A DNA stretch of 64,000 nucleotides from an uncultured Chloroflexia bacterium. Lineage in GTDB: Bacteria; Chloroflexota; Limnocylindria; Limnocylindrales; CSP1-4. Location of the stretch: contig OY970218.1 in the NCBI GenBank assembly GCA_963713975.1, positions 2,240,001 to 2,304,000 on the forward strand, in the 5' to 3' direction. The notes beneath the pieces were generated by a model that saw only the letters and a program-made list of their open reading frames with translations, made no database searches and was not told where the DNA came from. Below are positions 10,646-30,981 of the stretch, in pieces (the stretch's first letter is position 1; each line of letters starts with the position of its first letter). Both the position numbers and the translations under genes were made by a program.

Positions 10646-10696
10646 CCCCGAGCGTCGCGCGGACCTGCCGCGGCTAAGGGTCGCCTCGCCCGTACG

Positions 10697-12541: not shown

Positions 12542-13080
12542 GGCGCGATCCGTCCTGGGCGCGGCACGCCTGATCCGGGCCCTTCGAGCGCGGTGCGCAG
12601 GCGCGCGAGCGCAGATGCGAGACGGGACTTCACCGTGCCGACCGGGATCCCGATGGCGTCCGCGACGGCCTCGTGCGTCAGGTCGGCTCCGTAGTGCAGG
12701 GCGAGCACGGTTCGGTGCTCGACCGACAGCCGGGCGAGCGCGGCGGCGAGGTCAACGTCGCGCTCAACCCACGGGCGTGGGTCGAGCGACAGCGGCTCGA
12801 ACGGCAGGGGCTGGATCTCGTGCACGCGGGCGCCCCGACGGCGCCCGACGTCGCGGCAGCGGTTGACGACGATCCGGCGGAGCCAGGGTTCGAACCGCTC
12901 GGGATCGCGGAGCCTGGGCAGCTCGGACCAAGCCCGGACGAAGGCGTCCTGGGTCACGTCGCGGCCGTCCTCGGGACCAACGATCGACGCGGCGAGCCGG
13001 TACACCCAACCCTCGTTGTGTTTGACGAGTCGAGCAAAGGCATCCCGATCCCCATTCCGTGCACGGACGACGAGGTCCAG
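12538..13080 (-). CDS. ECF sigma-70 factor, probable CTG start
   Basis: Region 2 DVTQDAFVRAW...FEPWLRRIVVNRC and region 4 EAVADAIGIPVGTVKSRL. Frame continues upstream as LDLVVRARNGDRDAFARLV to a CTG 9 nt after GGGAGG, with an in-frame TAG just before. Confidence 0.88.
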   Translation of the reverse strand: MDLVVRARNGDRDAFARLVKHNEGWVYRLAASIVGPEDGRDVTQDAFVRAWSELPRLRDPERFEPWLRRIVVNRCRDVGRRRGARVHEIQPLPFEPLSLDPRPWVERDVDLAAALARLSVEHRTVLALHYGADLTHEAVADAIGIPVGTVKSRLASALARLRTALEGPGSGVPRPGRIAP

Positions 13081-13131: not shown

Positions 13132-13508
13132 GGCTGCTCAGCAAAGCACACGGGGACGTCTGGGGAGGCTCCTAGCGTGCCGCGCGGTGGCGATGCGGGA
13201 CTCTGGGGTCGGACGGGCGCGGAGTGCCGGCTTCTCTCTTGCTTCGGGGCATCGCGCCGGACCCAGGTCGCCGTCATCGCGGAACGAGGCCAGCTGCTCG
13301 ACCTGCCTCAGCACCGCAAGGGCCAGGGTTCTCCCCAATGGCCGCCCGCCGCGCCGACGCGTACGGTTGAGCTCGTGATGGGGAACACGGGACCTCGCCG
13401 GCGGGGGGGGCCGGCGAGGCGCTCCTTGGTCACACTGGCAATCGCGTCGGAATCGAGCCATTCGGCCCCTCTCGCGCCCAGCGTGAGCCCGAAACTGTCT
13501 GGGTACAG

Positions 13509-16500
13509 ATGAGCCGCGCGTCGGCCATCCAGCAGCAGGGGGTCCGCACTGTGCTCCGTCGCCTTCTGCCGGTCGCCACGGCGGCCTTGCTGATCGCAAC
13601 GCTCGTGCCCGTCACCGCAGGCCCGGTCGCGGCCACCGACCTGGCGGCCCCCATCCTGCTCCAGCCGGCCCCCGGCGCGTCGGTCAACGACACCGGCGTG
13701 CACTTCAGGTGGACTCGGGTTTCGGGCGCCGTCTCGTACCGGCTGCACGTGTGGTCGGTCGCCGAGGGCGAGGGGTTCGACCTCGTCGAGACCACAGCGA
13801 ACGACGACTTCGTCGCGTTTGCCTCGATCCCGACCGCGCTCCTCAACTGGTCGGTGACGTCCATCGATGCCCAGGGCAACGACGGGCAGACGGCCGCATC
13901 GACCTTTGCACCGGCAGATCCTGCCCCTGCCCTTCTGGGTCCGGTTGACGGCACGGTGGTCACGTATCCTGACGCGGGACCACAGTTGCGGGCGTGGTCT
14001 CGCCAGGCTCCGCCCTACTACTACTTCTACGACACCGATGTGGCCGGGCAGGGCGATCCGATGCCGGACCTCGGGGGCACCAGCGCCGAGCCGCGTCTCG
14101 AGCCCGGCACGTATCGGTGGACCGCGGGATATCCGGATCAGCATCACGACCATCCGGTGGCCGCCCCCGTGCGGACGCTGACCGTCGAGTGGCCCGAAGC
14201 GACCCCGCAGCTCCTGGAGCCGGCGGACGGCGCATCGGTCGTGGCGGGCGATACGGCGGTGCTCCGTTGGGGTTCCGTTCCGGGGGCGGTCGCCTACGAG
14301 GTCCAGTTCGATCGCGGCTCGGGGTTCGACGGCCAGCCCGTCATCGGGACGCCGATCCCGGCGTTCGTCCTCTCGGACTTGTGGACCGCGCAGACGCTCC
14401 GCTGGCGGGTCCGCCCGACGCAGACGCCCGCGGGGTTCCTGTGGCCGGTCCGCGGGCCGTGGTCCGAGGCGCGAACGATCACCGTCTCGGCGCAGGGCGA
14501 GATCACGGGGTTGTCGCCCGTCGATGGCGCCGCCGTCGCGAGCTGGCCCGTGTTCCGGTGGGATCCACTGGCGAACGCAAGCGCGTACGAGGTCCAGTTC
14601 GCGATCGACCCGGTCACGGGGCCGACCCAGAGCCGCGTGATCAATACCCCGGCGTTCACCCTCAAGGCCAACGGTGATTGGCTGGCACAGCTCGCAGCAG
14701 GCGAGACCTGGTGGCGGGTCCGGGCGGTCCCGGTCCTCTCCGTCGGGATCGCGAGCGAGTGGTCCTCGTGGCGCCACGTGACCGTCGAGTCGGCGGACGG
14801 CGTGCTGGGAGCGCCGGTTGCCGCAACCGGGATCGGCGCGGCCGCCTGTCCTGAAGGGGACGCGTGCGAGCCCCTGACCGGCTGGCCCATCCTCCGATGG
14901 GAGCCCGTTCGCGGCGCCGCCCTCTACCGGGTGTTCCTCCGCCATCCGCTCACGGCATCAGCGTACGGATACGTCGATGTCGCCGGCGCGGAGCTGGTCG
15001 CCGGACCCCTCGCAAGCCAGGCGTCCGACCCCGGCACGTCGAGGGCGCTGTGGTCGGTGGTCGCCTGCCCGTCATTGGTCGACTGCCCGACCGAGCCCGT
15101 CGGCGCGGTCTATCGCGTGGAGCGCAGCCTGCCCGCTCCGATCCCGGTGAATCCGGGTGACGACGCAACCGTTTACCATGCGGGCCAGGTGCTCACGTGG
15201 CTGCCCGTGCCGTCGGACCTTGCGAGTGGGCCCGATGAGGTTCTGCCGGCCCTCACGACGTGCCTGGAGACCGCCCGAACGCGCGATGGCGGCTCCACGA
15301 CCACGGCCACCAGGTGCTCGACGGCCACGAGCACGATCGTGGACCTCACCGATGATGCCGGCGTCGTCGAGTGGCGCGTCCGCGCCGAGGCCGGCACGAC
15401 GTTCCTGGCCGAACCCGGTGCCTGGTCGGCGCGCCGCTCGTTCCGCCACGCGCCGCCCACGCCGGTCCTGGATTCGCCCGTCGAGGGTGCGACCGTCACC
15501 GGCGCCCCCGTGCTCCGGTGGCACGCGGCACCCTCCGAGGTGCAGTACGGCGTCGACGTCATTCGCGAGGACGTGCATGACGCGTTCGGGTGGAACCTCG
15601 CCATGCGGTACGGGCCCGGTGGTGCCACCTCCATCCAGACCACGACGCCGCTCGCGCCAGGCGCCTATCTCTGGCGGGTGACATCCGGGGACAACGTGGC
15701 GACGGTCGGGCACTTCACTGTCGAGGGCACGACGGAGCTCCCTCTCATCGAACCGGCCGCCGGCGCCATCGTCCCGGCCGACGACGTCGACCTTTCGTGG
15801 ACCGAGGTTCCGTGGGCGAGGTTCTATACCGTGGCGATCGGGTCGACGCCCGACTTCTGGGGCATCGACGCCGTCTGGTGGGGCACGAGCCCGCTGCCGT
15901 CGCTGGCCGTGCCGGTACGCCTACCGGAGGGGCCGCTCTACTGGCGGGTGTGTCCGATGCTCGATGGGCTGAATGCCTCGGACTGCAGTGCGACCAACCA
16001 GCTGGCCGTGGGCGCCTCCGAGGTGCGGGCAATGACGGTCACGTCGGCGCTATCCGCGCGCGATCTCGCCATCCCGACATCGCACGGCCTGCTGGTGCAG
16101 CTCCGCCTCAATGCGACGATGTCAAGCACGGGCCGGGTCCCGCTGCGCGTGCGCTGGACGTCGTCCGACGTCGGCTCGGGCGTCGATGCCCAGGAGATCC
16201 AGGTCAAGCAGGACGACGGCTCGTGGCAGCCGGCAGCCAGTGGCCGCCTGACGGGAACCGCCTCCTACCTCGACCTCAACCTGGCCGCGGGGCACCGCTA
16301 CGACCTGCGCGTGCGGGCGACAGACCTCGCCGGCAACATCGGGGACTGGGCGTCCGCCCGCATCAGCCTTCGGCTCCGCCAGGAGACCTCGTCGGCCTGG
16401 AGATGGTCCGGCAGCTGGTCCCGGGTTCGCTCGACCGCCGCTTCGGGCGGGGCCTTCCGCCGCTCGACGGATCGAGGGGCGACCGCGAAGATGACCTTCA

Positions 16501-16736
16501 CGGCGAGGTCGGTCGCCCTGATCGCGCCTCGCTCGACCAGTCGGGGCAAGGCCGAGGTGTGGATCGACGGGACGAAGGCCACGACGATCCGACTGAACGC
16601 CAACCCAACTGGTGCCCGACGCGTGGTCTTCACCCGGAGTTGGGGCTCCGCTGGGAGCCACCGCATCAAGGTCGTGGTGCTTGGAGCACCCGCCGGCTCT
16701 CGCGTCGACCTGGATGCGATTGTCCTGGTGGAATGA
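13509..16736 (+). CDS. Large secreted protein with ~8 Fn3/Ig-like modules and a C-terminal beta-sandwich
   Basis: Signal peptide (likely GTG start at 13551, VLRRLLPVATAALLIATLV...VAA); repeats of PxLxxPxDGAxV...LxWxxVxGAxxYxV; no catalytic motif recognised. Confidence 0.8.
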   Translation: MSRASAIQQQGVRTVLRRLLPVATAALLIATLVPVTAGPVAATDLAAPILLQPAPGASVNDTGVHFRWTRVSGAVSYRLHVWSVAEGEGFDLVETTANDDFVAFASIPTALLNWSVTSIDAQGNDGQTAASTFAPADPAPALLGPVDGTVVTYPDAGPQLRAWSRQAPPYYYFYDTDVAGQGDPMPDLGGTSAEPRLEPGTYRWTAGYPDQHHDHPVAAPVRTLTVEWPEATPQLLEPADGASVVAGDTAVLRWGSVPGAVAYEVQFDRGSGFDGQPVIGTPIPAFVLSDLWTAQTLRWRVRPTQTPAGFLWPVRGPWSEARTITVSAQGEITGLSPVDGAAVASWPVFRWDPLANASAYEVQFAIDPVTGPTQSRVINTPAFTLKANGDWLAQLAAGETWWRVRAVPVLSVGIASEWSSWRHVTVESADGVLGAPVAATGIGAAACPEGDACEPLTGWPILRWEPVRGAALYRVFLRHPLTASAYGYVDVAGAELVAGPLASQASDPGTSRALWSVVACPSLVDCPTEPVGAVYRVERSLPAPIPVNPGDDATVYHAGQVLTWLPVPSDLASGPDEVLPALTTCLETARTRDGGSTTTATRCSTATSTIVDLTDDAGVVEWRVRAEAGTTFLAEPGAWSARRSFRHAPPTPVLDSPVEGATVTGAPVLRWHAAPSEVQYGVDVIREDVHDAFGWNLAMRYGPGGATSIQTTTPLAPGAYLWRVTSGDNVATVGHFTVEGTTELPLIEPAAGAIVPADDVDLSWTEVPWARFYTVAIGSTPDFWGIDAVWWGTSPLPSLAVPVRLPEGPLYWRVCPMLDGLNASDCSATNQLAVGASEVRAMTVTSALSARDLAIPTSHGLLVQLRLNATMSSTGRVPLRVRWTSSDVGSGVDAQEIQVKQDDGSWQPAASGRLTGTASYLDLNLAAGHRYDLRVRATDLAGNIGDWASARISLRLRQETSSAWRWSGSWSRVRSTAASGGAFRRSTDRGATAKMTFTARSVALIAPRSTSRGKAEVWIDGTKATTIRLNANPTGARRVVFTRSWGSAGSHRIKVVVLGAPAGSRVDLDAIVLVE

Positions 16737-16993
16737 ACCCGCCGCCGACGGCCCAGCGCTTTGTAGATGCTCAGCCGCTGTCGGGCCTTCCCGGCGCCAC
16801 CCCCAGAAGGTCGCCCTCCGTCCCGCCGTCGGCGAGCCACATATGGGCGTAGGTGTGGCGGAACTGGTGAGGTGCAGGTTGGTGAGCCCGGCCACGGCGT
16901 GAGATAGGTCTTGATCGTGGCCGGGCTGCGGTCTACGGCGCGCAGGCTCAGGCGCCAGCTGTCGATGGCCGACCGGAGGTAGAGGTCCGGCAC
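16737..16993 (-). pseudogene. Tyrosine integrase relic with large internal deletion
   Basis: [26 protein letters not shown] joined directly to AVAGL...[21 protein letters not shown], both near-identical to the integrase at 29832-30779; ~600 nt missing plus frameshifts. Confidence 0.9.
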
Positions 16994-17024
16994 CCGGCCC
17001 CGCGCGTGGTACGGTTCCGGCCAC

Positions 17025-17063
17025 GCGGGAGTAGCTCAGCTGGCAGAGCGGCAGCCTTCCAAG
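17025..17063 (+). repeat. attL-like direct repeat: 39-bp 5' half of tRNA-Gly
   Basis: GCGGGAGTAGCTCAGCTGGCAGAGCGGCAGCCTTCCAAG is identical to 30906-30944 and ends one base after the anticodon loop. Confidence 0.93.
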
Positions 17064-17270
17064 TCTCCCGTTCCCGAGCGCTGTGCTCTGATCTCAGGAT
17101 TCCCCGTTCGCTGGCCCTGGTTCCGGGCGAATTTGGCGGTCTGGCCCACAGCGTGATAACAGGCCTTCAGCGCATAACGCGTTTTCGTCGCACAAGAGTC
17201 TGCGGGCGCCCATGACGATCTGGAGGGCTTGACAGGTCACCCTTGACGGTGCGCCCCGGACGGACCTCCG

Positions 17271-17930
17271 TTACTGTCCCGTGTTGGGCAGTCGAGGCGT
17301 GGGCGGGCGTGCTGTGGATCGGCCAGACCGTCGAAGCACGAGGGCCATGGCACCCAGTGCCCCCGTGATGAGAAACAAGAAGCCCGGCCACGGACCCTCC
17401 CGTGAGACGCGCTGGGCGCGCGCCGGAAATGCGTCCGTCGCCGGAAGCTCCGCGAGGGCGCGCACGCGGTTCTCCGACAGCTTCTGAACGCCCGGCATGA
17501 AGAACCGGTCCGGGCGACCCTCCACCCAGGCGACAGCGACGACTCGGTCGATCGATGCTCCTGGCTGGCCGGAGAACGCGAACGCCAGGACATCCCCGAC
17601 CTGCGCGTACAGTTCCGACTCGTCGCAGACCTTCATGACGTCTGCGAAGCGCGTCCCAGTCTCGACCCTGAAGCTCGCCGGGGCGTCACCACGCAGGACG
17701 TCGATCACGTCCACGCGGAACGTGGTCGTCTGCCCGTTGATCGGCATCACAAGGCTTTCGGCGACCCGGCCGAGGAGGATGGTCCCGGCCGCGGGCGCCA
17801 ACCTGGTGAACGCCGGCCAGCGGTCCGTCCTGGTGCACTCCGCATAGACGCCTGCGGTAGCGACCTGCGACGCAAGAGTCGCCAGGAGCATCGCCACGAC
17901 CCATCGAACCAGCCGACGCGGGTGCGTCAT
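17271..17930 (-). CDS. Secreted protein with LPATD motif + TM + basic tail (sortase-like anchor)
   Basis: GGAGGGAG RBS, signal peptide MTHPRRLVRWVVAMLLATLA, C-terminal ELPATDA...FLFLITGALGAMALVLRRSGR. Confidence 0.75.
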   Translation of the reverse strand: MTHPRRLVRWVVAMLLATLASQVATAGVYAECTRTDRWPAFTRLAPAAGTILLGRVAESLVMPINGQTTTFRVDVIDVLRGDAPASFRVETGTRFADVMKVCDESELYAQVGDVLAFAFSGQPGASIDRVVAVAWVEGRPDRFFMPGVQKLSENRVRALAELPATDAFPARAQRVSREGPWPGFLFLITGALGAMALVLRRSGRSTARPPTPRLPNTGQ

Positions 17931-17964
17931 GGATCTCCCTCCAGGGTGGTGCGTGGCCGGATGC

Positions 17965-19320
17965 CTACAGGCCACAGGTCGAGTCCGTGCACAGGGTGAT
18001 GGGCTCCCCGTACGAGCTCAACTTGGAGAACACCCACCCCATCGGCGAGTACCAGGCGCTGCCACCCGGCGGATTGGCGCTTGTTGAGTCGCTGTGGATC
18101 CCCCATGCCAGGGTCACGCCGCCGCTGGTCGTGAAGTACGGGGCTCCGCTGTCTCCCGGGCTGGCGTCGAAGTTGTCGACCCACTGGTGCTCGATGGCTG
18201 TGCCGTCGACGTCCTTGACCCTGTCTTCCAGCGTGAGGTTCCCGCACCAGAACCCGGTCGTCCTCCCCGATCGACAGAGATAGTCGCCCACGTTCTGGCT
18301 TGATGTCGTGACATAGCCCCCGACGGTGCGGATGTCATTCTCGCTCACGCCGAAGAGGAGATTGTCAGGGCCACTCGGGGCGGACATCGCGATCAGGCCG
18401 GCGTCAGCGTTGGACAAATTCCCATAGGTCTCCGTCCTCCCTGTTCCGATGTCGGTCCCGCTGTGGCGCCACATGCTGTTGAGCCCGCCGGTCGCGAGGG
18501 CCAGGCAATGACCGGCGGTCAGCATCCGATAGGTAGAGGTGCCCTGCCTGCGCACGACGAAGCCGGACGTGCAGATCGAGCTCGTATTGACCTGCTCGTA
18601 GATCTTGATGCCACCCTTCATGGGCCAGCAGTCGATGCGCGACAGGCACGCATCAAGGTGTGCATCGATTTCCTCCTCGACCGTCCCGACAGGACCGTAG
18701 CGGGATTGAAGCTCCGTGTCGGCCACCTCTGTCAGGCCGTTGACCCCCACCAGCACCTGGTTGTTGCGGATATCCAGACCCGCGCTCTGGATGTCGATGC
18801 CTGCTCTCGCGAGCTCGCCCCGCTCTCCCCAGATCGTGTGCTTCAACTGTTCCAGCTCGGCTCGAGCGTGACCGACTTCGACAAGGTCGTAGTCGACGCC
18901 GGGCGGCATGCGTTCCGCAAGGTCCGCCACCCAAGCTTGACGATCCTGGCCCGCGACCATGAAGACGGGCATTCCTCCGCGTTGCTGGTCCATGTAGACG
19001 CCCGCATACCCGTCGAGGTGGCTCGCGTATTCGATCACGGGATCAACCGCCAACTGGATCGCGATGCGTCGACCGATCTCCGCTGCCTCGGCCTCGGAGA
19101 GCGGGACGCCGTACTGGAGATCAGGGAAGGTCGAGTGGTCGGCGAAGGTCCCCCGAACAAAGTCCTCGTCCGACCGGAACCCCGCGGTCTCGCGGAACAC
19201 GATCGCCTGACCGACATCCGCCGCGGAAACTACGGTGTTAGCCAGTGCGCTGGATGGGGTACCGAACGACAGCGCCAAAGCCAGCAGGACGCCCAGCGGG
19301 CCCAAACGACCTTTCGGCAT
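17965..19320 (-). CDS. Secreted S1 (alpha-lytic/streptogrisin-like) serine protease with pro-domain
   Basis: Signal peptide; CTSGF, LTAGHC (His), DAG (Asp), CRSGRTTG, PGDSGAP (Ser). Confidence 0.92.
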   Translation of the reverse strand: MPKGRLGPLGVLLALALSFGTPSSALANTVVSAADVGQAIVFRETAGFRSDEDFVRGTFADHSTFPDLQYGVPLSEAEAAEIGRRIAIQLAVDPVIEYASHLDGYAGVYMDQQRGGMPVFMVAGQDRQAWVADLAERMPPGVDYDLVEVGHARAELEQLKHTIWGERGELARAGIDIQSAGLDIRNNQVLVGVNGLTEVADTELQSRYGPVGTVEEEIDAHLDACLSRIDCWPMKGGIKIYEQVNTSSICTSGFVVRRQGTSTYRMLTAGHCLALATGGLNSMWRHSGTDIGTGRTETYGNLSNADAGLIAMSAPSGPDNLLFGVSENDIRTVGGYVTTSSQNVGDYLCRSGRTTGFWCGNLTLEDRVKDVDGTAIEHQWVDNFDASPGDSGAPYFTTSGGVTLAWGIHSDSTSANPPGGSAWYSPMGWVFSKLSSYGEPITLCTDSTCGL

Positions 19321-19499
19321 GACCTCATCCCTCTTTCCTGGTCCGGACCTTTCGTGACGATGACGATCAGCTCGGCTCGCGTTCGTGTCGGCACGTCGGG
19401 TGGTCCCGGCTACCGTACGGCCCCCTGCTGCGCTCGGCCATTGGGGATTCGCCTACTGGGCGAGCCCGCCGGGATGTGCGACGGTCGTGCTCGCGTCGG

Positions 19500-20123
19500 T
19501 CAACGCCGCGGCCGCGGTTCGGGTGGGATGTCGAGCCAGCCCTCCCGCTCAACCCGCAGGGCGAGCTCGGTCCGGCTCAGCGCGCCGGCACGCGTGAAGA
19601 GGTGCGACAGGTGCACCTCGACTGTCTTGCGTGAGAGACCGAGGTCGGACGCGATCTCGTCGTTGGTCTGCCCGCGCAGCAGGCCCGCCAGGACCTGCCG
19701 CTCGCGGTCGGTCAGCGGCGCCCAGGCCGCGCCGCCGGGGTCCGCCGGGTAGACCCAGCCGCCCGCATGCACCCGGCGGACCGCGTCCACGATGGCGTCG
19801 GTGCGGGTCGTCTTCAGCAGGTAGCCGCCCGCCCCGTGCCGCTGGGCCGCCGCCTGGTACAGCGGGTGGTCGTACTGGGACAGCATCAGGAAGCGAGGAC
19901 CTGCCAGCGTGGCGCGCGCCTCGGCGAGGAGCTCGAGCCCGGAGCCGTCGGGCAGCCGGACGTCGCACACGACGATGTCGAACCGTGTTTCCGCCAGCAG
20001 CTTGCGGGCCTCCCCCAGGGTGTGCGCCGCCAGGACCGGACCGAATCCGTGTTCGGCCCGCAGACGCCCCTCCAGCCGCTCGGTCACGAGCGGGTGGTCG
20101 TCGACGATGAGGATGGCGATCAC
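19500..20123 (-). CDS. NarL/LuxR-family response regulator
   Basis: ILIVDDHPLV, CDVRLPDGSG, GYLLK, LTDRERQVL...TNDEIASDLGLSRKTVEVHL; GTG at 20123 overlaps the kinase stop. Confidence 0.92.
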   Translation of the reverse strand: MIAILIVDDHPLVTERLEGRLRAEHGFGPVLAAHTLGEARKLLAETRFDIVVCDVRLPDGSGLELLAEARATLAGPRFLMLSQYDHPLYQAAAQRHGAGGYLLKTTRTDAIVDAVRRVHAGGWVYPADPGGAAWAPLTDRERQVLAGLLRGQTNDEIASDLGLSRKTVEVHLSHLFTRAGALSRTELALRVEREGWLDIPPEPRPRR

Positions 20124-21730
20124 GGCCGGCTCCAGTCCAGGGTCACAAGCGTGCCCGTCGGGGATGCGGCCCCGACCGCCAACGCCGCACCGACCGACGT
20201 CGCACGCTGGTGCATCGTCGCCATCCCGAGCCTGCCAGCGCGGCGGGCCGCCCACAGGTCGTCCTGCCGGATGCCGCAGCCATCGTCCTCGATCTCCAGA
20301 CGCAGCCGGTCGGGCCTGACGTCCGCACGGACGGTGATGCGGCTGGCCGAGGCATGGCTGATGACGTTGCCAACGGCCTCCTGCGCGATCCGGAAGGCGG
20401 CCAATTCCACGTCGGCGGGCGGACGCTCGTGCCTGGTGAGCCCGGTAGTGTGGGTGATGTCCCCGGCGATCGCGACATCCGCGTCGAGGCGGATCCGCGT
20501 CTGATCGACGAGCCAACCGAGCGCGGCATCCAGGCCGAGGTCGTCGAGCACAGGCGGCCGCAGCGCCGCGCTGACCGCACGCAACTCCAGCCCCGCCTCC
20601 TCGAGCAGCGTGATCGCGTCGTCGGCCGACCCGCCGTCACGCAGGCCGGCCACGGCGGCCGCCAGGACCTGGACCGGGCCGTCGTGGATCTCGGCCGCGA
20701 GCCGCGCCCGCTCCTCCTCGGTGGCGGCCAGCGCGGCCCGGTCCCGTACGCCGTCCGTCACCAGGTGCTCGACAATCGAGGCCAGGCGGGCGCGCACGAG
20801 CACATAGGCGGCGCCAGCGACCATAGCCGCCGCAACGGCCATCGGGACCGGCACGGCCGCGAGTGCGACCAGCGTCACCGTCCCGGCGCCGATCATGACC
20901 GCAGCCAGGACATCGAGGGCGCGCGGCGGGTTCCGGGTCGCCGTGTCCGCCGCCCAGCGGCGCCACGGAGCGGCCACGGCGAACGCGGTCACCAACGCGG
21001 CCACGGTCGTGGCCACGCGTGCGGCATCCGCCACCTGATAGACCGGCAGGGCCGCAAACCTGGCGGCCGTCCAAGCGATCGCCCCGGCAGCGGCCGCAGC
21101 CGGGACGACGGGCCAGAACCGGTACCGGGCAGCACCGACCACAAGCCACGCCGCGCCGACGAGCGGGATCGCGGCGAGCAGGGCCGTGGATGCTATCGGG
21201 GTGTTCGTCGCCGCTACCGGAACGGCAGCGACGAACGCCGCAGCGAGTGCGGCCGCGACCGCGAGCTCCCGGCGCAGTGGCAGCAGGCCCACGGCAGCAA
21301 GACAGAGGAGCAGGGCGGCAAGGGCCACGGGCACGGTCTGGCGCAGGACCTGCCGCTGCCCGGGGCCGCCGGTCGCCAGGATCGTGTCCGGAGCCGGCGT
21401 GACCTCCACCCGCCAGAGCAGCGGGGAGTCGCCGTTGAGAAACGCGACGAGCGCCTGGCCCTGGCGGAGACCGGTGTTCCAGGCCTGCCCGCCAGGCAGC
21501 ACCCAGCCGACCTCGAGGCCCAGCGGCTCCACCTGCACGTCACGGAGCGGGACGCCATCCCCCGCCATCGTGAGCGCCCACAGCGTGCTCACCCCGGCCA
21601 GTCCCACCGCCGCTGGCGCCAGCCACCGGCCCGACCGGCGCCCCGTGGTCCCGGGCGGGCGCCCACGAGGCAACTCACCAACCCCAGCATAGGGATTCCC
21701 CCAATCGCCTCGCACCTGCCGCTCCCTCAT
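20120..21730 (-). CDS. Multi-TM sensor histidine kinase (HisKA_3) with PDZ-like extracellular segment, ComP-like architecture
   Basis: ERARLAAEIHDGPVQ, LRPPVLDDLGL, QEAVGNVISHA, DDGCG; N-terminal EVGWVLPGGQAWNTGLRQGQALV followed by several TM helices; start uncertain. Confidence 0.88.
   Translation of the reverse strand: MRERQVRGDWGNPYAGVGELPRGRPPGTTGRRSGRWLAPAAVGLAGVSTLWALTMAGDGVPLRDVQVEPLGLEVGWVLPGGQAWNTGLRQGQALVAFLNGDSPLLWRVEVTPAPDTILATGGPGQRQVLRQTVPVALAALLLCLAAVGLLPLRRELAVAAALAAAFVAAVPVAATNTPIASTALLAAIPLVGAAWLVVGAARYRFWPVVPAAAAAGAIAWTAARFAALPVYQVADAARVATTVAALVTAFAVAAPWRRWAADTATRNPPRALDVLAAVMIGAGTVTLVALAAVPVPMAVAAAMVAGAAYVLVRARLASIVEHLVTDGVRDRAALAATEEERARLAAEIHDGPVQVLAAAVAGLRDGGSADDAITLLEEAGLELRAVSAALRPPVLDDLGLDAALGWLVDQTRIRLDADVAIAGDITHTTGLTRHERPPADVELAAFRIAQEAVGNVISHASASRITVRADVRPDRLRLEIEDDGCGIRQDDLWAARRAGRLGMATMHQRATSVGAALAVGAASPTGTLVTLDWSRP
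21690..21705 (+). promoter_or_regulatory. 16-bp box YAGG.....CCCCAAT, candidate response-regulator site
   Basis: TAGGGATTCCCCCAAT; related copies at 13324, 19440 (minus), 21667, 22938 and 22960. Confidence 0.65.
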
Positions 21731-21768
21731 CGTGACCGCACGACCACCACCAGCCAGAGGGACCTACG

Positions 21769-22293
21769 ATGCAGCCTCGTACCAGCATGCTCGCACTTCT
21801 GGCCGCAGCCGTGCTGGCCGTCTTCGCGGTCGCGACCGGGACAGCGACCACGCGAGCCACCTCGACGCCGGCGCCGGTCGCCGACCTCGCCGGCGTGCTG
21901 ATCCCGATCGGCGAGGTCGCGGCCCACTATTGCCACGATCTCGACTACCCCCGCATCCACTGCTTCGCCCAGCCCGAGGAGCTCGAGTCCGCCGTCAGCG
22001 CGACCCAGACGTCGCGCACTCTTCAGGTCGCCGCGGGTGCGCAGTACATGAAGCTCTTCGACCTCGCGGGCTACACGGGCACGTACATCATCCTGTCGCT
22101 TGACTACAACGACCTCAGCACCATCGGCTGGAACGACCGGGCGAGCTCATACATCGGTGTCAACAACCTCGCCTTCGGCCTGTGGACGGCCTGGTACATG
22201 ACCGGGAGCGGGATCGTGGGCTGCTGCAACCAGCGGGCGTCCTCGCTCTCGTCCACCTTCGACAACCAGATCAGCTCGACGCAGTTGCGGTAG
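21769..22293 (+). CDS. Secreted beta/gamma-crystallin-like (peptidase inhibitor I36-like) protein
   Basis: Signal peptide; twin Greek-key-like motifs LFDLAGYTG...WNDRASSY and WYMTG...FDNQISS. Confidence 0.72.
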   Translation: MQPRTSMLALLAAAVLAVFAVATGTATTRATSTPAPVADLAGVLIPIGEVAAHYCHDLDYPRIHCFAQPEELESAVSATQTSRTLQVAAGAQYMKLFDLAGYTGTYIILSLDYNDLSTIGWNDRASSYIGVNNLAFGLWTAWYMTGSGIVGCCNQRASSLSSTFDNQISSTQLR

Positions 22294-22294
22294 G

Positions 22295-22696
22295 TCAGCA
22301 GGCGGGCGGCGGCGGCGAGGAGCCCGCCGGGTCGCCGGGCGGTGTCACGAACACGACCGCGAGGCCGGGCTCGAGCACCACATCCACGATGACGCCCTCC
22401 GGGACCGCGGTCACGACATCGGCGACCGCCGACCTGTCCTCGAGCGTGCGGACGACCCGCCAGTGCACCGCGAAGCCCGCCGATACCAGTGCCTTCTCGG
22501 CATCCCCCGGCGACAGGCGGGCCACGGCCGCGCAGTCCACGGGGGGCGCCGTTGGGGCCGAGGCGGCGCTCGGCGTCAGCATCACCGGGGTTGCGGCTAG
22601 CGAGCAGGCTGTCAGAAGCACTGTCGTGGTGAGCATGACGAGGATCCGACCCAATGAGCGCAGTGTGTTGGAAGGGTGACGGAGCCAGCGGGTCAT
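22295..22696 (-). CDS. Small lipoprotein
   Basis: Lipobox LLTAC, Pro/Ala linker, small globular domain ending in Cys. Confidence 0.65.
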   Translation of the reverse strand: MTRWLRHPSNTLRSLGRILVMLTTTVLLTACSLAATPVMLTPSAASAPTAPPVDCAAVARLSPGDAEKALVSAGFAVHWRVVRTLEDRSAVADVVTAVPEGVIVDVVLEPGLAVVFVTPPGDPAGSSPPPPAC

Positions 22697-22937
22697 GTGT
22701 CCGGAATCTACTCTAGGCGGTTCCTGCCCGGTTCCTTAGCTTATTCACTTCCCTGTCGGGCGCGCCAAACCACCCCGCCTCTTCCCGCGGTCGCCCCTGC
22801 TCCATGTCGATCCCCGCCCTATCGGCGGCGGCCTGATGTCGGACACGCTGCCACCGCAGGTGACGGTTGCACAAGCGAGTTGTGTGCAGTCCGCGTCTGG
22901 TCGTGCCAGGGCAGACACGCCCTGCAGTCGACGCCTA

Positions 22938-22975
22938 TAGGGTTCTCCCCATCCGGGGATAGGGGACTCCCCAAT
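22938..22975 (+). promoter_or_regulatory. Tandem 16-bp boxes, 22-bp spacing
   Basis: TAGGGTTCTCCCCATC and TAGGGGACTCCCCAAT upstream of the secreted gene at 23159. Confidence 0.65.
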
Positions 22976-23158
22976 TGCACACCACGGACGACGCGACGAG
23001 ACTCGCGATGGCTGTCCTAGGTGGGCACAACCTGATCATCCCAGCCGAGACGGACTCCCTCCCATGACCCCGCCATCGGGCGTCGGCACACAGGAAACGA
23101 CCGTCTGCAGCCGGCGCGGCCAACAGATACCGAGCCGCCACACGAAGGGAGCGCCAGC

Positions 23159-24001
23159 ATGAGACGTCATCGGTCGGTGTCTGTTCGCCTGCTCGCCGTC
23201 GTCGCCTCGGCCGTGCTGGTCTCCCAGAGTGCCGGAGCGACTCTCGCAGCAGGTCCGGCGGTCTCGCCGTCGCCTATCGCGACTGACTACCAATGGGCGT
23301 TCTGGGCGGACGGCCTCGCTCCACTCGCCAACGCCAAGCAGTGGGTGCTGCAGGGAACCAAACAGCCGTCTGGCGCGTGCGCCTATGACTATCCGACAGG
23401 CCCAACGGAGGTGCCCGCCGCCGGATGGGAGGCACGCAGCGTCGCCATCGACGTCGCGAACTGCGCGAAGCTTATTGAGGAGGGGCAGCCAACGGCATTC
23501 GCTGTCACCGAGAGAGGGCCGGGCACGTCCGAAGCTCTGACGGAGGGCAGCAGCGGAGTCGCGAGGACCCAGTCCGACGCCGCCGCAGCGACGAGCACGC
23601 GAAGCGCCTGGCAGAAGGTGACCTGGTACGACATCGTCAACCTGTGGCTCAACTACGACGTGACGCAGGTCACTTGGTCCTACAACGGGTCGTCGGTGAG
23701 CGCCGGATCCGTCCAAGGGTTCGTCGGCTGGCGCAGCGGCTCAGGCTGGGGCCTCGTCTACGCGCATCACGCCGGGTCCTACGGTGCCGGGAACTCATAC
23801 TATCTCGGCAACACGTGGAGCAAGATGGGCAACCCGATCTTCTGCCCTACGCCGCCGATCGTCTACACCGTGTATTCCTTCAATAAGGTGTGGGGGCATC
23901 CGAACGGGACGGCGACGCGCAGCCAGTCGAGCGACAGCATCGACGAGTGCCTGCCCTTCCACTTCGACATCCAGTCCGCGTACGGCACCTGGCCGGGATG
24001 A
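23159..24001 (+). CDS. Secreted hypothetical protein with aromatic/Gly-rich beta C-terminal domain
   Basis: AAGGGAG RBS, signal peptide ending ATLA, two Cys pairs, Trp/Tyr-rich strands (QVTWSYNGSSV, GWRSGSGWGLVY). Confidence 0.78.
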   Translation: MRRHRSVSVRLLAVVASAVLVSQSAGATLAAGPAVSPSPIATDYQWAFWADGLAPLANAKQWVLQGTKQPSGACAYDYPTGPTEVPAAGWEARSVAIDVANCAKLIEEGQPTAFAVTERGPGTSEALTEGSSGVARTQSDAAAATSTRSAWQKVTWYDIVNLWLNYDVTQVTWSYNGSSVSAGSVQGFVGWRSGSGWGLVYAHHAGSYGAGNSYYLGNTWSKMGNPIFCPTPPIVYTVYSFNKVWGHPNGTATRSQSSDSIDECLPFHFDIQSAYGTWPG

Positions 24002-24023
24002 GGTCGGCGGAGGGCCCGCGCCG

Positions 24024-24361
24024 GTGAGTCGTGCCCTGGTCCTCGGGCTGGTCGCAGGCGCGGTTGCCCCGCCCTCGTCTTCGTAGTCCTGCCCGTCATT
24101 GGGGTCCTGGCTGTCGGAGGGCTGCTCGTGGCCACGGCGCGAGGCCCTCGGCGATGGACGCTGAACGGAGCCCTGACTGGGCTTGGGGGCGTCTGGACCA
24201 TCCTCGCGGCCAAGGGGTTGGCCGATTGCGCCCCTACGGGTGACTGGTGTGGTCAGACGCCGTTGGTCCCCTTCATGGTGCTCGCGTTCGTCACGCTGGC
24301 ATGCGGCATCGCCTCGACCGTGGTGTCGCTTCGGCGATCCCGAACTCCGGACGGCCGGTAA
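24024..24361 (+). pseudogene. Small ~4-TM membrane protein with one frameshift (real or sequencing error)
   Basis: GGAGGG RBS + GTG; VSRALVLGLVAGAVA shifts at the C-run ~24067-24070 into ALVFVVLPVIGVLAVGGLLV...DCAPTGDWC...SLRRSR. Confidence 0.6.
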
Positions 24362-24531
24362 GGCCTTCGAGCGCACCGGCAGCCACCGGCGACAATGCGC
24401 CTTCCACTGGTGGCGTGGCCCATCGGACAGGCGCATGGGCGCGGCCTCCACGCCTCGAGTCGGAACGTCGTGCCGGCACCACGCCACTTGGTCAGCGTGC
24501 GCGCCCGCACGGGAGGCGTGAACAGGGCGCA

Positions 24532-25808: not shown

Positions 25809-25866
25809 GGCGGATCCTCCAGGGCTGCCGAGGCGCGCATGTACGGCACGCGTCTGGCAGCCGTCT

Positions 25867-25929: not shown

Positions 25930-26512
25930 GTGCGTGGGGGGTGGTGTGGCAGCAACCGCCGGGTGCAGGAGGCGCTGGCCGATCACCCTGGCCTCGGCGC
26001 GATCGGGACCCTCACGATAATGGTGGCATCCGCAGGTTCAGAACCCATTCGGGTTGGCGAATGCGACTTCGACGGCGACCGTACGCAACAGCCGTACACA
26101 TGCCCCCGCTCCGAGGGTCTTGTCCGCCGTAGTCTCGGGGCAGCGGTGACAGGCGAGGCGCCGGTCGTCGCGGGATCGTCCCCCGTGGGGCCGGCGGCGT
26201 GCGCTGCGGCCCGGCGGCACGGGGCCGCGGCTGGAGCCCCTCCGGCAGCCTCTGGGACCGCCCGTGACGCCGGCCACCCGCCCCCAGACCGCCCGCGTCA
26301 GGCCCAGGCGTCCGAAACACGGGTGCCCCAGGGCCCACTATGAGGTCGCCCACCATGCTGATGTCGTCCGCTCCCCACCACGCCACGTCATCCCAGCCCA
26401 TCCGGTCCCGCGTCCCTGACCCTCACCGGGTCCGCGACGGGGGCATCGGGTCCGGATCCCTGCCCCGGGTTCCGTGCGCGGGAACGCCCCCGGAGCCGCG
26501 GGACCCCACACC

Positions 26513-27412
26513 ATGATCGGGACGTTCCGTCCGGCTCCCCATCCCGTCAGGCGTCGGGTGCTCGATCCCGGGTTCCTGGGCATCCGCGACCGCGCGGTCC
26601 TCGAGCTCCTCCATCGCGCCGACGTCGCCACCACCGGCCAGCTCGTCACCCTCGTCTACCGCCGCCGGCAGACGGCGCAGGAGCATCTCGTCGCGCTGTA
26701 CCGCGCGGGCTGGATCGAGCGCGCCGTCCTGCCACCGACAACCCGGGGTGGTGCCCCACTCGCGTTCCGGCTCTCCGCCCGAGCCCGTCGCCGCCTGGGT
26801 CTCGGTCCCCTCACGCGCGGACGCGCGGGCACGCAACTGCGCCACTCGCTCAACGTCACCGAGACCGTCGCCACCCTGGTCCGCATGGATCCAGCGGGCA
26901 CGATGTCCCACCCCGTCCGTGCCTGGCTCCCCGAGCGCGCCGCCGCCAAGGTCGGGCTGCGCGACGTGTTCCCCGACAGCATCGTCGCACTCGCCTTGCC
27001 CACGGGCTCGGCCGTCCTGTGCCTCGAGATCGACCAGGCCACCGAGCACGCCCCGGTCATCCGCGCCAAGCTCGCTCGCTACGAGCCGGCGCTGCGCAAC
27101 CGCCATGGCTGGGGCGTCCTGTTCGTCGTCGAGTCGCCGGTCCGCGCCGCCTATCTCGCGCGGGTGGGGCGCGAGACCGAGTGCGCCCATCGCCTCATCG
27201 GCAAGGCCTGGGTCACGGTCCTCGGCGACCTCGCGGCCGAGGGTCCTTCCGCCACGCTGCGCCAGATCACCCCGGGCGGCGGACGGACCACCCTCGCCGC
27301 GGTCCTGCACGACCCTCGGCCACGCAGATGCTCGACACCCGTCGGGAGCGACGCGTGGATCGAGCTGCTCGCCTTTGGCGGCGCGGAGGACACGGCCGAG
27401 GCGCTCGCGTGA
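26513..27412 (+). CDS. Replication-relaxation (Replic_Relax-like) family protein
   Basis: RDRAVLELLHRADVATTGQLVTL wHTH, HSLNVTE, PDS...LEIDQATE...IRAKLARY, VLFVV pattern typical of this family. Confidence 0.78.
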   Translation: MIGTFRPAPHPVRRRVLDPGFLGIRDRAVLELLHRADVATTGQLVTLVYRRRQTAQEHLVALYRAGWIERAVLPPTTRGGAPLAFRLSARARRRLGLGPLTRGRAGTQLRHSLNVTETVATLVRMDPAGTMSHPVRAWLPERAAAKVGLRDVFPDSIVALALPTGSAVLCLEIDQATEHAPVIRAKLARYEPALRNRHGWGVLFVVESPVRAAYLARVGRETECAHRLIGKAWVTVLGDLAAEGPSATLRQITPGGGRTTLAAVLHDPRPRRCSTPVGSDAWIELLAFGGAEDTAEALA

Positions 27413-27627
27413 CGGGGGTTGACCCGGCACCCGCGCCGCCGGAACTGCGAGCCAGGGGTCTCGCCGCAGCCCCGGTCGCCCTCAACCCGAGCGTCGTCCG
27501 GACGACCGTTGGCGGCGTCCTCGTGGACCCCGCGACCCGCCCCTGCCCGGTTCCGGTCGGCTCTGACGTCTGGCTGCGGATGCTGGGCACCGGGCGCGTC
27601 GAGGTTGACGCGGAGGCCCTGTGGTGA
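27409..27627 (+). CDS. 72-aa protein paralogous to the C-terminal tail of the relaxase
   Basis: GTGA overlap; TTVGGVLVDPATRPCPVPVGSDVWLRMLGTGRVEVDAEALW aligns with relaxase TTLAAVLHDPRPRRCSTPVGSDAWIELLAFGGAEDTAEALA. Confidence 0.6.
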   Translation: MTGVDPAPAPPELRARGLAAAPVALNPSVVRTTVGGVLVDPATRPCPVPVGSDVWLRMLGTGRVEVDAEALW

Positions 27628-27884
27628 GGCGCGAGTCGCTCACCCCGTCCGAGCGGGTTATGCGCGCCCGGATGGCCGCGTACACGCTCCATGCCCGCCA
27701 CGACCCGCGCGAGACGACGAAGGCGGCGCGGCGCGCCTTCAACCAGCGCTTCCTCGACGAGGTCGACCCCGAGCGCTGTCTCCCAGGGCCGGAGCGTCTC
27801 CGCCGCGCCGACGCCGCGAGGCGGGCATACTTCACGCGGCTGGCCTACCTGTCGGCGCGGAAGCGGCGAAGAGCCAGCGGGTGA
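27621..27884 (+). CDS. Small basic helical protein of integrative elements
   Basis: LTPSERVMRARMAAY...RFLDEVDPE...ERLRRADAARRAYFTRLAYLSARKRR; resembles hypothetical proteins of actinobacterial integrated elements (recalled, not searched). Confidence 0.7.
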   Translation: MVRRESLTPSERVMRARMAAYTLHARHDPRETTKAARRAFNQRFLDEVDPERCLPGPERLRRADAARRAYFTRLAYLSARKRRRASG

Positions 27885-27897
27885 TCCGCAACTTGAT

Positions 27898-28734
27898 TTA
27901 CGGTTCGGCGGGGGAGAGACGCCGCAGGAGCTGCTCGACGCGGGCGAAGGCCAACGCCTGGACCCGATCGGCCTCCGGGCTTCCCAGCGGCACCCTCCGG
28001 TACATGGCGACACTCGCCGGTCCGATCGCGTCGATCGAGGTGAACTTGTCCGCGAGGATGCGCACGGCCTTCATCACGGGGTCGACGGCTGCCATGGCGG
28101 CGATCCCGGCGGCCACCTCGCCGATGCCGATGTGGCTCAAGAGATAGTCGATGTCGTACGCGTCCTTCGGCTTGTCGCGCTGGCCCATCGCGAGCGCCTT
28201 CAGGATCACGAGCGCCGACGGTGTCGCGACACGGACGGAGACCCGATTCTGGCGCCCGTCCGGCAGCAGACCTGCGATCTCCTGATCGACGAAGGCGGTG
28301 CGGACGAGCTCGGCGCCCTCCGTCCGCCGCGCCAGCGGCTCGCCGCCGATCCGTTCGTGGCGATGGCCAGCCCCGCCCCGGGGCGTGACTGGGGCGAGCA
28401 GGTCAACCTCGACATCGATCGTCCGCTCGTCGAAACGGACCGACCGCAGCCACCGGAAGGGCTGGTCAAGCTGGGTGTAGCCGCGATCGCGGAGGAGCTC
28501 GGCGATCGTCCGATAGGCATCGTCGGGGACGCCGATCGGGTCGACCACCAGGTCGACATCAAGCGTACCGGCGTAGGGATCGTCCGGCTGGTCTCCGGTG
28601 AGCAGTGGGGGAGCGCTGCCGCCGACGATCGTCATCGCGTCGGCGAAGCCCGCCAGGATCGTCCAGAGCTCGAGCAAGACGCGCTGCGCCGCTACGACCG
28701 ACGCCGGGTCGTCGCGGGGATCTACCGCGGCCAC
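27898..28734 (-). CDS. AbiEii-like nucleotidyltransferase toxin
   Basis: IVGGSA...GTLDVDLV NTase motif and LKALAM..RDKPKDAYDIDYLL; GTG 28734 overlaps the antitoxin end. Confidence 0.82.
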   Translation of the reverse strand: MAAVDPRDDPASVVAAQRVLLELWTILAGFADAMTIVGGSAPPLLTGDQPDDPYAGTLDVDLVVDPIGVPDDAYRTIAELLRDRGYTQLDQPFRWLRSVRFDERTIDVEVDLLAPVTPRGGAGHRHERIGGEPLARRTEGAELVRTAFVDQEIAGLLPDGRQNRVSVRVATPSALVILKALAMGQRDKPKDAYDIDYLLSHIGIGEVAAGIAAMAAVDPVMKAVRILADKFTSIDAIGPASVAMYRRVPLGSPEADRVQALAFARVEQLLRRLSPAEP

Positions 28735-29768
28735 AGCTCGCCTCGTTCGCGCATGAAGGCGGCCGCCTCGGCGGAGGCACCGCCTCGCCGGACGAGATCC
28801 ACGTACAGCTGCGGCCGACTCGCGAGCATCAGGCCGTCGCGTTCGAAGCTGCCGTCGAGGGCGCCGCCGTCTGTCGGCCGGATCAGGATGACATTCCCGC
28901 CGCGCGCGACCGGTGTGAGCTGGAGGGCTTCGTCCCATGGTGCGAAATCGGTGACGTACAGCTCCACGCGGGCGAACCGAGTGAACGGCGCGAGCCGATC
29001 CGCGGCGGCCTCAGCCGTGATCGCATAGCGCGGCGGATCGTCCAGCGCGCGGATGGCCCTCAGGATCGCCTCCGGGCCGCCGATGATCGCGACATGCTCC
29101 AGGATGGCATCACCGGGCGCGGGAGCCGCCGCCCAGGCCTTCAGCAGGGCGTCGCGATCGCTGAGGCGGCTCGCTCCCCGCGCTCGATCGAGGTACGCGT
29201 TGCGCGCCAGCGTCTTGAAGGTCCGGCTCACGAAGCCCTGCGTGAGGCCCGTGCGGGCGGCCATGTCGGCGAGGGTCCATGAGCGATCGGGCTGGATCAG
29301 CAGCCAGCGCACGACTCGGAGGGCGGCGCCTGAGAAGGGGTCGGCGACGTACCGCGTGCCCGGCGCATCGGCGTCGCGGCGCGTCGGCCGGCGGCCCAGG
29401 CGCTCGATGAACAGGCTCCCGAGCACGATCCGACAGTCGCCGTCGGGCTCGATCCAGCTGATGCCTGCGTCTTGGAGGATCTCGCGAGCGCGCGCGCCGA
29501 GGACGGGCGCGACGAGGATGGCCGCACCGCATCGCTGGAGCCAGGGAACGAGCCGCGCGACCACGGCGGGCTCGGCCCGAGCCTGGAACTCCACGCACGC
29601 CGTCGACCGTTCACCCGAGGGCGCGGTCAGATCGAGATAGGCGTCGGTCCTGGCGTCCGCAGATCCATCGCCCGATCGCACGGCCATCGCCCAACCCGGC
29701 GGAAGGATGGCCCCAACAGCCTGTTCGAAGGCTTGTGCAAGCGCGGGATTGAGTTGCAGTTCTACCAT
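28722..29768 (-). CDS. AbiEi-like type IV antitoxin / regulator
   Basis: Central HTH WTLADMAARTGLTQGFVSRTFKTL, YAITAEAAA, GGNVILIRP, ASRPQLYVDL..RGG..AEAA. Confidence 0.8.
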   Translation of the reverse strand: MVELQLNPALAQAFEQAVGAILPPGWAMAVRSGDGSADARTDAYLDLTAPSGERSTACVEFQARAEPAVVARLVPWLQRCGAAILVAPVLGARAREILQDAGISWIEPDGDCRIVLGSLFIERLGRRPTRRDADAPGTRYVADPFSGAALRVVRWLLIQPDRSWTLADMAARTGLTQGFVSRTFKTLARNAYLDRARGASRLSDRDALLKAWAAAPAPGDAILEHVAIIGGPEAILRAIRALDDPPRYAITAEAAADRLAPFTRFARVELYVTDFAPWDEALQLTPVARGGNVILIRPTDGGALDGSFERDGLMLASRPQLYVDLVRRGGASAEAAAFMRERGELWPR

Positions 29769-29831: not shown

Positions 29832-30779
29832 CTAGATCCGATCTCCCGGGCTCCGCTTCCGGTATGCCTCACGTGCCCGCTCGTCGGCCGCCGAGGCGCC
29901 GTAGCGGCTGAGCATCTGGCGGCTCTTCCAGCCGGCGAGGCGCATGAGGTCGCCCTCCGTGCCGCCGTCGGCGAGCCACATGTGGGCATAGGTGTGGCGG
30001 AACTGGTGGGGGTGGAGGCTGGGCAGCCCGGCCACGGCGCCGCGGCGCCTGAGCACCTGGAGGACGCCGCTGTCGGTCAGGACCCCGCGGGCGCCCAGCC
30101 ATAGCTCGTCGCGGCCGGCCTGCGAGTGCGACGCGCGGGCCCGCAGGTAGCGATCGATCGCCTGGGCGGTCTTGCTCCCGAACGGGCAGGCCCGGGGACG
30201 GCGGCCCTTGCCCAGCACGATCGCCACCCCCTCGTCAAGATCGACGTCCGCCAGGCGCAGGCCCGTGATCTCGCCCCGGCGCATGCCGGTGTCGAGCAGC
30301 ATCCGGACCAGGGCGGTGTCTCGCCGGGCTTCGAAGCCCGTCCCGGCGCAGGCGTCGAGGATGGCCTTGATCTGCTCCGGTCGCAGGATCGGCGGCGGTT
30401 CCTCGGGCACGATCGGCGGGGTCATCCTGGCCATCGGTGACTCGCGGACCTCGTCCTCCGAGACGGCCCACTTCCAGAACGCCTGCAGGCAGCGGTAGGC
30501 GAGTGAGACGGTCGCGGGTCGTGCCCCGCCGTCCTGGAGGGCAACGAGGAAGGCCTCGATGTGCTCGCGCCGGAGCCCCTCGAGCGAGGCGGGCATGCCG
30601 CGCTCGGCGAGGAACGCATCGAACCGGGTGGCCGCGTCGAGATAGGTCTTGATGGTGGCCGGGCTGCGGTTCGCAGCGCGCAGGCTCAGGCGCCAGCTGT
30701 CGATGGCGGACCGGAGCCCGAGGCGTGGCGGCCCGGCCGCCTCCGTTATAGTGGTCCTGGTGCTCGTCGGTCTGACCAC
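29832..30779 (-). CDS. Tyrosine recombinase/integrase (intact)
   Basis: DTGMRRGE (R), GKG (K), HQFRH (HxxR), AGW, SRY (Y); divergent from the tRNA. Confidence 0.95.
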
Positions 30780-30905: not shown

Positions 30906-30981
30906 GCGGGAGTAGCTCAGCTGGCAGAGCGGCAGCCTTCCAAGCTGCATGTCGCGGGTTCGATCCCCGTCTCCCGCTCCA
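30906..30981 (+). tRNA. tRNA-Gly (TCC), CCA encoded
   Basis: 76-nt cloverleaf: acceptor GCGGGAG/CTCCCGC, anticodon arm GCAGC-CTTCCAA-GCTGC, T-loop GGTTCGATCC. Confidence 0.97.

Follow-up and report, generated by a model that had tools for sequence, protein, structure and literature searches.

A candidate mobile signalling cassette pairing a ComP-like kinase and a LuxR-type regulator with a secreted crystallin-like protein in uncultured Chloroflexota

In bacteriocin systems such as NisRK, PlnABCD and BlpCHR, the genes for an inducer, a kinase and a regulator lie beside bacteriocin, immunity and ABC genes, and paired operators are set two helical turns apart; these systems use short peptides as inducers and OmpR or LytTR regulators. 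A second paradigm is the ComQXPA system of Bacillus, in which the PDZ-like loop of the sensor ComP is made up of one helix and five strands and the binding of ComX by this loop is left open (PMC9620489), and in which a two-site promoter layout has been described for ComA (PMC4797271). The window analysed here, a stretch of 64,000 nucleotides from an uncultured Chloroflexia bacterium (contig OY970218.1, positions 2,240,001 to 2,304,000), carries a locus that resembles both. Its core consists of a sensor kinase, a NarL/LuxR-family response regulator and, head to head with the kinase, the gene for a secreted betagamma-crystallin-like protein, here called cry. Sequence comparisons indicate that these three genes are passed on together and that their promoter layout is constant: a distal box is followed after 22-23 bp by a proximal box and then, after 22 nucleotides, by a -10-like hexamer. 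The module would work like ComPA or bacteriocin autoinduction, yet it is not a member of ComQXPA. Coordinates of all features are collected in Table 1.

An initial annotation of the window had proposed a HisKA_3 kinase coupled to a LuxR-type regulator, with a layout like that of ComP, and both proposals hold. Pfam assigns HisKA_3 and HATPase_c to the kinase and REC and GerE to the regulator, whose recognition helix is conserved over 30 loci. As in Bacillus ComP (PMC9620489), the kinase has a first transmembrane (TM) helix, a PDZ-like loop and many further TM helices, an arrangement that PMC3353171 describes as ComP-like. The structural model contains eight TM helices, with the loop after the first folded as one helix and five strands at a predicted local distance difference test score (pLDDT) of 48-76. 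The PDZ character of this loop, also proposed at the outset, stands in part. The window kinase itself gave no Pfam PDZ match; among 16 aligned kinases, orthologues matched PDZ_6 in eight cases and PDZ in three, and a profile of 36 loop sequences matched PDZ proteins almost exclusively (best DegQ, E 7e-7), although only some 35 positions of the fold are covered (13-47 of 73). Because a structure search with the full kinase model returned ATPase domains alone, the assignment rests on profiles and secondary structure. Like ComP, the family combines a variable sensor part (24-34% identity across module loci) with a conserved kinase core (47%). Unlike ComP, with its roughly 770 residues and GAF-like insert, the window kinase has about 500 (494-509 in most orthologues) and eight TM helices, and a GAF insert was not detected. 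The start of the kinase gene is uncertain, as ACG occupies positions 21644-21646 where relatives have ATG, and an alternative ATG at 21728-21730 overlaps the -10 hexamer of cry.

Comparison across genomes identifies the kinase, the regulator and the head-to-head cry gene as the conserved unit, the remaining cargo of the window not being conserved. Full-length kinase orthologues occur in eight of the 36 same-genus genomes first drawn and the cry protein in 18 of 69 genus genomes; of 21 non-self genus loci, 19 have cry and the kinase head to head. A species-representative collection contributes 47 loci, 41 of them with cry facing the kinase, and the total falls to 44 once three distant crystallin-only matches are set aside; the misses are a locus beside an ABC gene, one at a contig end and a truncated gene, and the 44 family-level loci overlap the genus set and include records binned as Anaerolineaceae and Acidimicrobiales. 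In metagenomes, where 80 of 121 loci were kept, the same arrangement is found in all 47 with enough upstream DNA. Matches in G085 and G078 were judged spurious. Among sequencing runs, no RNA holder is listed; DNA contigs of other runs contain high-identity short pieces of the kinase, cry and operator regions, none of which spans the region. The converse linkage is not strict, as two genomes (G015 and G020) hold the kinase but no cry, which is likewise lacking beside related PDZ-loop kinases. Co-occurrence of the genes elsewhere, against which the initial annotation was to be checked, is seen for kinase, regulator and cry, while the four cargo genes do not move as a group; the only window cargo with a module-linked relative elsewhere is the protease, a homologue of which adjoins the module at L065 (E 2e-18).

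Several loci show variant arrangements. In the second module of G036 (L039:9098-13744) the PDZ/TM N-terminus is lost and a lactococcin-972 gene occupies the usual place of cry. At L067:6317-7324 and at L133 a second, convergent NarL regulator, driven by a box, adjoins the module regulator, and at L273:4499-6820 (G061) WXG100-like small genes adjoin a module with its cry gene in pieces. Nine loci (L016-L019, L021, L023, L025, L027, L028) share a conserved pair of kinase and regulator, the regulator being upstream, that gave no PDZ match and groups with divergent cry-linked kinases in a quick tree (support 99).

The six 16-mers first noticed in the window are present with exactly the letters, coordinates and strands given for them (13324, +; 19455-19440, -; 21667/21690, +; 22938/22960, +), and the spacing of the tandem copies, put at 22-23 bp, measures 23 bp in the first pair and 22 bp in the second. 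The idea of one operator common to the secreted-protein genes of the region is borne out. The consensus with at most one mismatch has just six sites in the 3.62-Mb genome, four of them within 13.3-23.0 kb. In a leave-one-out position weight matrix, each held-out box was equalled or outscored by 1-41 sites genome-wide, training sites included, the weakest being the box at 21667 (41 sites). With a matrix built from 53 box-plus-hexamer sites of other genomes, the window promoters are the top five matches of the genome (16.5-30.8, against 12.0 for the next site), a ranking not fully independent in that the selection pattern was partly derived from window sites. Relatives refine the operator to NAGGG-N4-SCCYAMT, a LuxR-type dyad often paired at 22-23 bp. 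The claim that the box is always oriented with the downstream gene needs rewording: because the box is pseudo-palindromic and the site at 19440-19457 scores higher on the + strand, the apparent orientation is owed mainly to the downstream hexamer. On the + strand, box b2 also has a -10-like hexamer at +22 (19480-19485; box and hexamer together 19442-19485), antisense into the regulator gene, possibly giving a feedback RNA or arising by chance.

The spacing between box and hexamer is tightly distributed. Of 46 distinct exact boxes, 29 are followed by NANNNT starting at +22 and eight by NANNNT starting at +23, no other downstream offset accounting for more than four, and all four window promoters carry a -10-like hexamer at +22. 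Some of these boxes point towards the kinase, and there the hexamer runs into the start codon; the cry promoter was therefore examined separately, and a +22 hexamer as kinase promoter was discarded since it overlaps or falls within the start of that gene. When the cry promoter was placed solely by register from the kinase-side box, TANNNT lay at +22 in 14 of the 25 genome loci used, 15 of 40 distinct loci having been set aside because their anchor box was poor. The metagenome loci gave 26 of 37 (16 of 53 dropped), and mismatches in the second box are minimal at 22-23 bp spacing in both sets alike. If the hexamer is a -10 element (-12 to -7), the proximal box would be centred near -43.5 and the distal box near -66, and the two-box layout of the window would be the one described for ComA (PMC4797271). 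The likeness to ComA extends to a NarL-family regulator, a hexamer-N4-hexamer inverted-repeat geometry and class I plus class II two-site promoters, with binding predicted here; unlike the ComA case, the box sequence is different and both sites are inverted repeats.

The combined pattern follows the module across the genus. The box with its hexamer is present in 16 of the 21 module-positive genomes (33 matches) and in five of the other 49, whereas a reversed-pattern control gives no comparable split (6 of 21 and 10 of 49); the Fisher p of 1e-7 for these 70 genomes overstates the association because the genomes are kin. Among the five module-negative genomes with the pattern, one has its site directly behind a kinase/regulator fragment belonging to the family, and in two others the site falls within a coding region. 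The exact box is absent from 20 loci of related kinases without cry (L010-L029).

The dyad also resembles the PAS-LuxR operator consensus CTVGGGAWWTCCCBAG and, like PimM-type sites, is a 16-bp GGG-N4-CCC dyad at the -35 region (PMC9774167), so that cross-talk with other LuxR proteins is possible. Here, however, the presumed reader is a REC-GerE protein coupled to a membrane kinase, and its targets encode secreted proteins, whereas those of PimM are polyketide genes. That the boxes are read instead by another chromosomal LuxR-type protein, for example of the LAL or PAS-LuxR type, would accord with this resemblance and with a match elsewhere in the genome (G000:C1:826859) that adjoins a large ATPase-type regulator gene. 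As the boxes track the module across the genus, flank the module's own genes and head the genome-wide ranking under the box-plus-hexamer model, such a reader seems very improbable. The site at 826859, one of two consensus matches outside the region, is a similar dyad between that regulator gene and secreted lipoprotein genes and probably marks a separate LAL-type regulon.

The reading favoured for the whole, at a probability of roughly one half, is that of a mobile three-gene cassette with regulator-driven promoters and cry as the partner of the sensor. Its first step is held with considerable confidence: the kinase would phosphorylate the NarL-family regulator, which in turn would bind the dyad and activate cry together with secreted competition genes that have acquired the box, in the window the alpha-lytic-type protease operon, the 23159 protein and the FN3 protein across the attachment (att) site. 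Given that step, cry may be the dedicated extracellular partner of the sensor, a proposal rated slightly short of even odds. Either cry itself, or a crystallin domain or peptide freed at its Ala-rich linker, would be read by the PDZ-like loop and TM sensor, closing a positive loop in place of comQX. This role is suggested because cry is the sole target never exchanged and adjoins the 5' end of the kinase gene, where the sensor is encoded, just as comX adjoins comP; autoinduction by cry or a cry fragment is the preferred, though tentative, reading of the signal. In contrast to NisRK, PlnABCD and BlpCHR, the candidate inducer would be a folded 145-residue Sec-exported protein. More tentative again is the general form of the idea, in which a ComP-type receptor with a folded, Sec-secreted crystallin signal, or a domain of it freed by extracellular proteases, would serve soil and freshwater Chloroflexota as a plug-in controller, bringing polymorphic toxins, bacteriocins and hydrolases under one operator.

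The nature of cry bears directly on these proposals. The family comprises about 100 clusters at 50% identity, with a mean identity of about 45% over 30 loci. The model is confident (mean pLDDT 88.9), and residues 92-174 form a betagamma-crystallin domain of two Greek-key motifs, superposing on a Ciona crystallin with Z 15.8 and a root mean square deviation (rmsd) of 1.4 over 81 residues; Z values against canonical crystallins are 12-16, and Foldseek gives E 5e-5. Like microbial betagamma-crystallins, cry has a single crystallin domain, and its matches to the I36 profile are weak; unlike these proteins, it has an additional N-domain, which carries an invariant Cys pair and for which fold searches gave no good match. 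To our knowledge, the functions of microbial betagamma-crystallin/I36 proteins are mostly unknown. A likeness to UmbB was not accepted (8w20_B, a chain of the Umb1 particle that is UmbB by size: Z 4.2, rmsd 4.9). As regards umbrella toxins, the 39 scanned neighbour proteins of modules hold no ALF match, the linked window protease retains its catalytic motifs, and UmbB is not termed a crystallin in the accessible part of PMC11062931.

The same regulon would result if cry were not the signal but an induced negative modulator or co-sensor, binding the sensor or serving as bait for extracellular proteases, with calcium, a protein from a competitor or the activity of foreign proteases as the trigger. 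Two-component systems often include induced extracytoplasmic modulators, and the promoter register makes cry a target of its own system. Matches to the I36 peptidase-inhibitor profile (PF03995) are weak but frequent, being found in 21 of 29 cry members at E <= 0.5 (best 6.7e-6), with the window protein at 13.8 bits against a curated cut-off of 21.1. In 86 of 105 proteins, the fifth residue of the first Ca-type crystallin motif is Ser/Thr. SMPI, a real I36 inhibitor, nevertheless reaches only Z 3.1 to cry, far below the crystallins, and the data fit activation equally; this role is judged unlikely, if worth keeping in view. Rather less probable is a third possibility, that cry is a founding effector, a crystallin-fold antimicrobial like AFP1 or SKLP whose linkage has been kept through the common divergent promoter region, while the sensor reads an unrelated small peptide. 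Its fold is indeed similar to those of AFP1, MiAMP1, WmKT and SKLP (Z 5.2-6.5), single-domain I36-like genes occur as variable cargo (L075, L271, L272), and cry-less kinases persist in G015 and G020. Other cargo turns over, however, while cry is kept at 41 of 44 and 47 of 47 loci despite its divergence, and no conserved small-peptide open reading frame (ORF) was noticed in the gene lists, from which ORFs below 35-50 residues could be missing.

A number of observations weigh against cry as partner of the sensor in a regulator-driven cassette. The contacts between regulator and box and between cry and sensor are both predictions from sequence. The C-termini of cry are variable, the final residue being of at least 15 kinds in 105 proteins, and the chain stops 4-5 residues past the last crystallin motif; cry therefore has no conserved free tail of the PDZ-binding type. 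Partial Mantel correlations over 30 loci are 0.25 for cry and sensor and 0.29 for cry and regulator, and because cry tracks the regulator equally well, co-divergence is uninformative on the cry-sensor pairing. PDZ-loop kinases without cry exist within the family, as noted above, and in neighbouring branches. Five of the 21 module-positive genomes have no exact box plus hexamer. Finally, among 59 box-plus-hexamer sites (4 in the window, 14 facing the kinase, 7 facing cry and 34 others), just about 13 of the 34 precede a credible secreted gene, the rest facing contig ends, insertion-sequence or toxin-antitoxin genes, a paralogous second regulator or no credible ORF.

Where ComQXPA has comQX, the locus has the head-to-head crystallin-like gene. 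As the initial annotation supposed, no comQ-like gene is visible: no second prenyltransferase of that kind was found in 70 genus genomes, which have one housekeeping PF00348 gene each (four have none and three have split fragments), in G000 at 1.3 Mb from the module. Likewise, no comX prepeptide with a C-terminal Trp was seen in the gene lists, in which ORFs below 35-50 residues were not called and to which no ComX profile was applied. In a 401-genome sample of the phylum, the loop profile also finds kinases in other Chloroflexota families directly behind a polyprenyl-synthetase gene, in comX-comQ-comP-comA-like loci composed of a short Trp-containing ORF, a polyprenyl synthetase, a 770-residue PDZ/GAF kinase and a NarL regulator. 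These kinases (772 residues, with GAF matches) have relatives in 21 genomes, and a comQ-like gene adjoins seven of 21 such kinases within the fetched flanks; the gene order is X-Q-P-A, against Q-X-P-A in Bacillus. In a quick tree the comQ-linked long kinases branch apart from the cry-linked ones. Because that tree is a quick search of 78 selected rows, midpoint rooted and without Bacillus ComP, no descent from ComP is claimed. Chloroflexi are not mentioned, by term search of the accessible text, in a ComQXPA census (PMC4008528), and PMC8895600 mentions a chloroflexi kinase-regulator pair but gives no details.

Cargo beyond the three core genes is exchangeable, comprising Rhs proteins, lactococcin-972, proteases and wall hydrolases. 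Among the 39 scanned neighbours, Pfam recognises Rhs (5), lactococcin-972 (3), matrixin, VanY, Amidase_6 and I36, with 21 in no family, and Rhs, lactococcin-972, matrixin and VanY are found as box-preceded cargo in other genomes. The suggestion that the 23159 protein might be a toxin finds no support: it has no convincing Pfam, NCBIfam or PDB match, falls in unnamed secreted clusters of low recognition in the Atlas, and has homologues at four genus loci where no box was seen nearby. From its position alone, the small membrane ORF that follows may be immunity-like.

The mobility proposed for the circuit is supported for the module but not for all of its targets. The integrase and the 39-bp repeat at both ends define a tRNA-targeting integrative element of about 13.9 kb (about 17025-30944) around the module; because this stretch starts near 17025, the 13509 gene and box b1 lie outside it. 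An older island at the same tRNA-Gly site may have left behind the 13509 gene, still carrying the operator. For the tandem islands (16763-17063, 29832-30944), the 5' half of tRNA-Gly serves as att; they lie upstream of the tRNA, so that the element supplies the 5' end and the promoter of tRNA-Gly. An AAA_14 plus DUF4143 gene is split over frames at 24532-25808, by mutation or assembly error, and the older island (10044-13080) includes the gene for an extracytoplasmic function (ECF) sigma factor, accompanied by an anti-sigma-like gene with kelch repeats, as well as a small antitoxin/PIN-like pair.

Table 1. Features of the window, in order of position, and comparison loci in other Chloroflexota
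Feature	Position	Strand	Remarks
Box b1	13324..13339	+	hexamer 13362-13367, 22 nucleotides downstream; top match in genome (box+hexamer matrix)
Secreted 1075-residue multi-FN3/Ig-like protein	13509..16736	+	box-preceded; fn3, Ig_J below cut-off
Integrase remnant	16763..16978	-	internal deletion; 81-92% nucleotide identity to intact integrase; end of older tandem island
Left att	17025..17063	+	exact 39-bp copy of 5' half of tRNA-Gly
Secreted 219-residue protein, predicted C-terminal hydrophobic anchor	17271..17930	-	second protease-operon gene; no Pfam/NCBIfam family
Secreted alpha-lytic-type S1 serine protease	17965..19320	-	His and Ser motifs align to alpha-lytic protease (E 6e-10)
Box b2	19440..19455	-	precedes protease operon; hexamer 19412-19417
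NarL/LuxR-family response regulator	19500..20123	-	REC and GerE helix-turn-helix (Pfam)
Sensor kinase	20120..21646	-	TM1, PDZ-like loop (about residues 31-94), 7 more TMs, HisKA_3, HATPase_c (Pfam, model)
Box b3a, distal, weak	21667..21682	+	in relatives also kept 22-23 bp upstream of proximal box
Box b3b, proximal	21690..21705	+	hexamer 21728-21733
cry	21769..22293	+	signal peptide, N-domain of about 55 residues, Ala-rich linker, single betagamma-crystallin/I36-like domain
Small lipoprotein-like ORF	22295..22696	-	convergent, without own box
Tandem boxes b4a and b4b	22938..22975	+	22 bp apart; hexamer 22998-23003
Secreted 280-residue two-domain protein (23159 protein)	23159..24001	+	unnamed family, four invariant Cys; 24 homologues
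Small hydrophobic membrane ORF	24028..24361	+	apparent frameshift split near 24070 (three-frame translation)
Element backbone	26474..29768		replication-relaxation protein, AbiEi/AbiEii-like pair
Tyrosine integrase	29832..30779	-	E 3.9e-25
tRNA-Gly(TCC)	30906..30981	+	5' 39 bp = right att (30906-30944)
comXQPA-like loci, other Chloroflexota families	L267:2407-6514 (G223); L268:134-4343 (G442)		relatives L278-L298

Few descriptions exist of cell-to-cell signalling and antagonism in Limnocylindria-like Chloroflexota, and a literature search that reached few subscription journals and no supplements found neither an account of the kinase/regulator/cry module nor a betagamma-crystallin/I36 protein tied to a kinase. 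For an uncultured lineage, the cassette provides a regulator with a defined operator and defined targets, all of which could be tested in a heterologous host, and it suggests a candidate signalling role for microbial betagamma-crystallin/I36 proteins. It may also provide a route to ask what the PDZ-like loop of ComP binds, a matter termed unresolved in PMC9620489, and the box-plus-hexamer pattern could be used to mine genomes for new secreted antibacterials.

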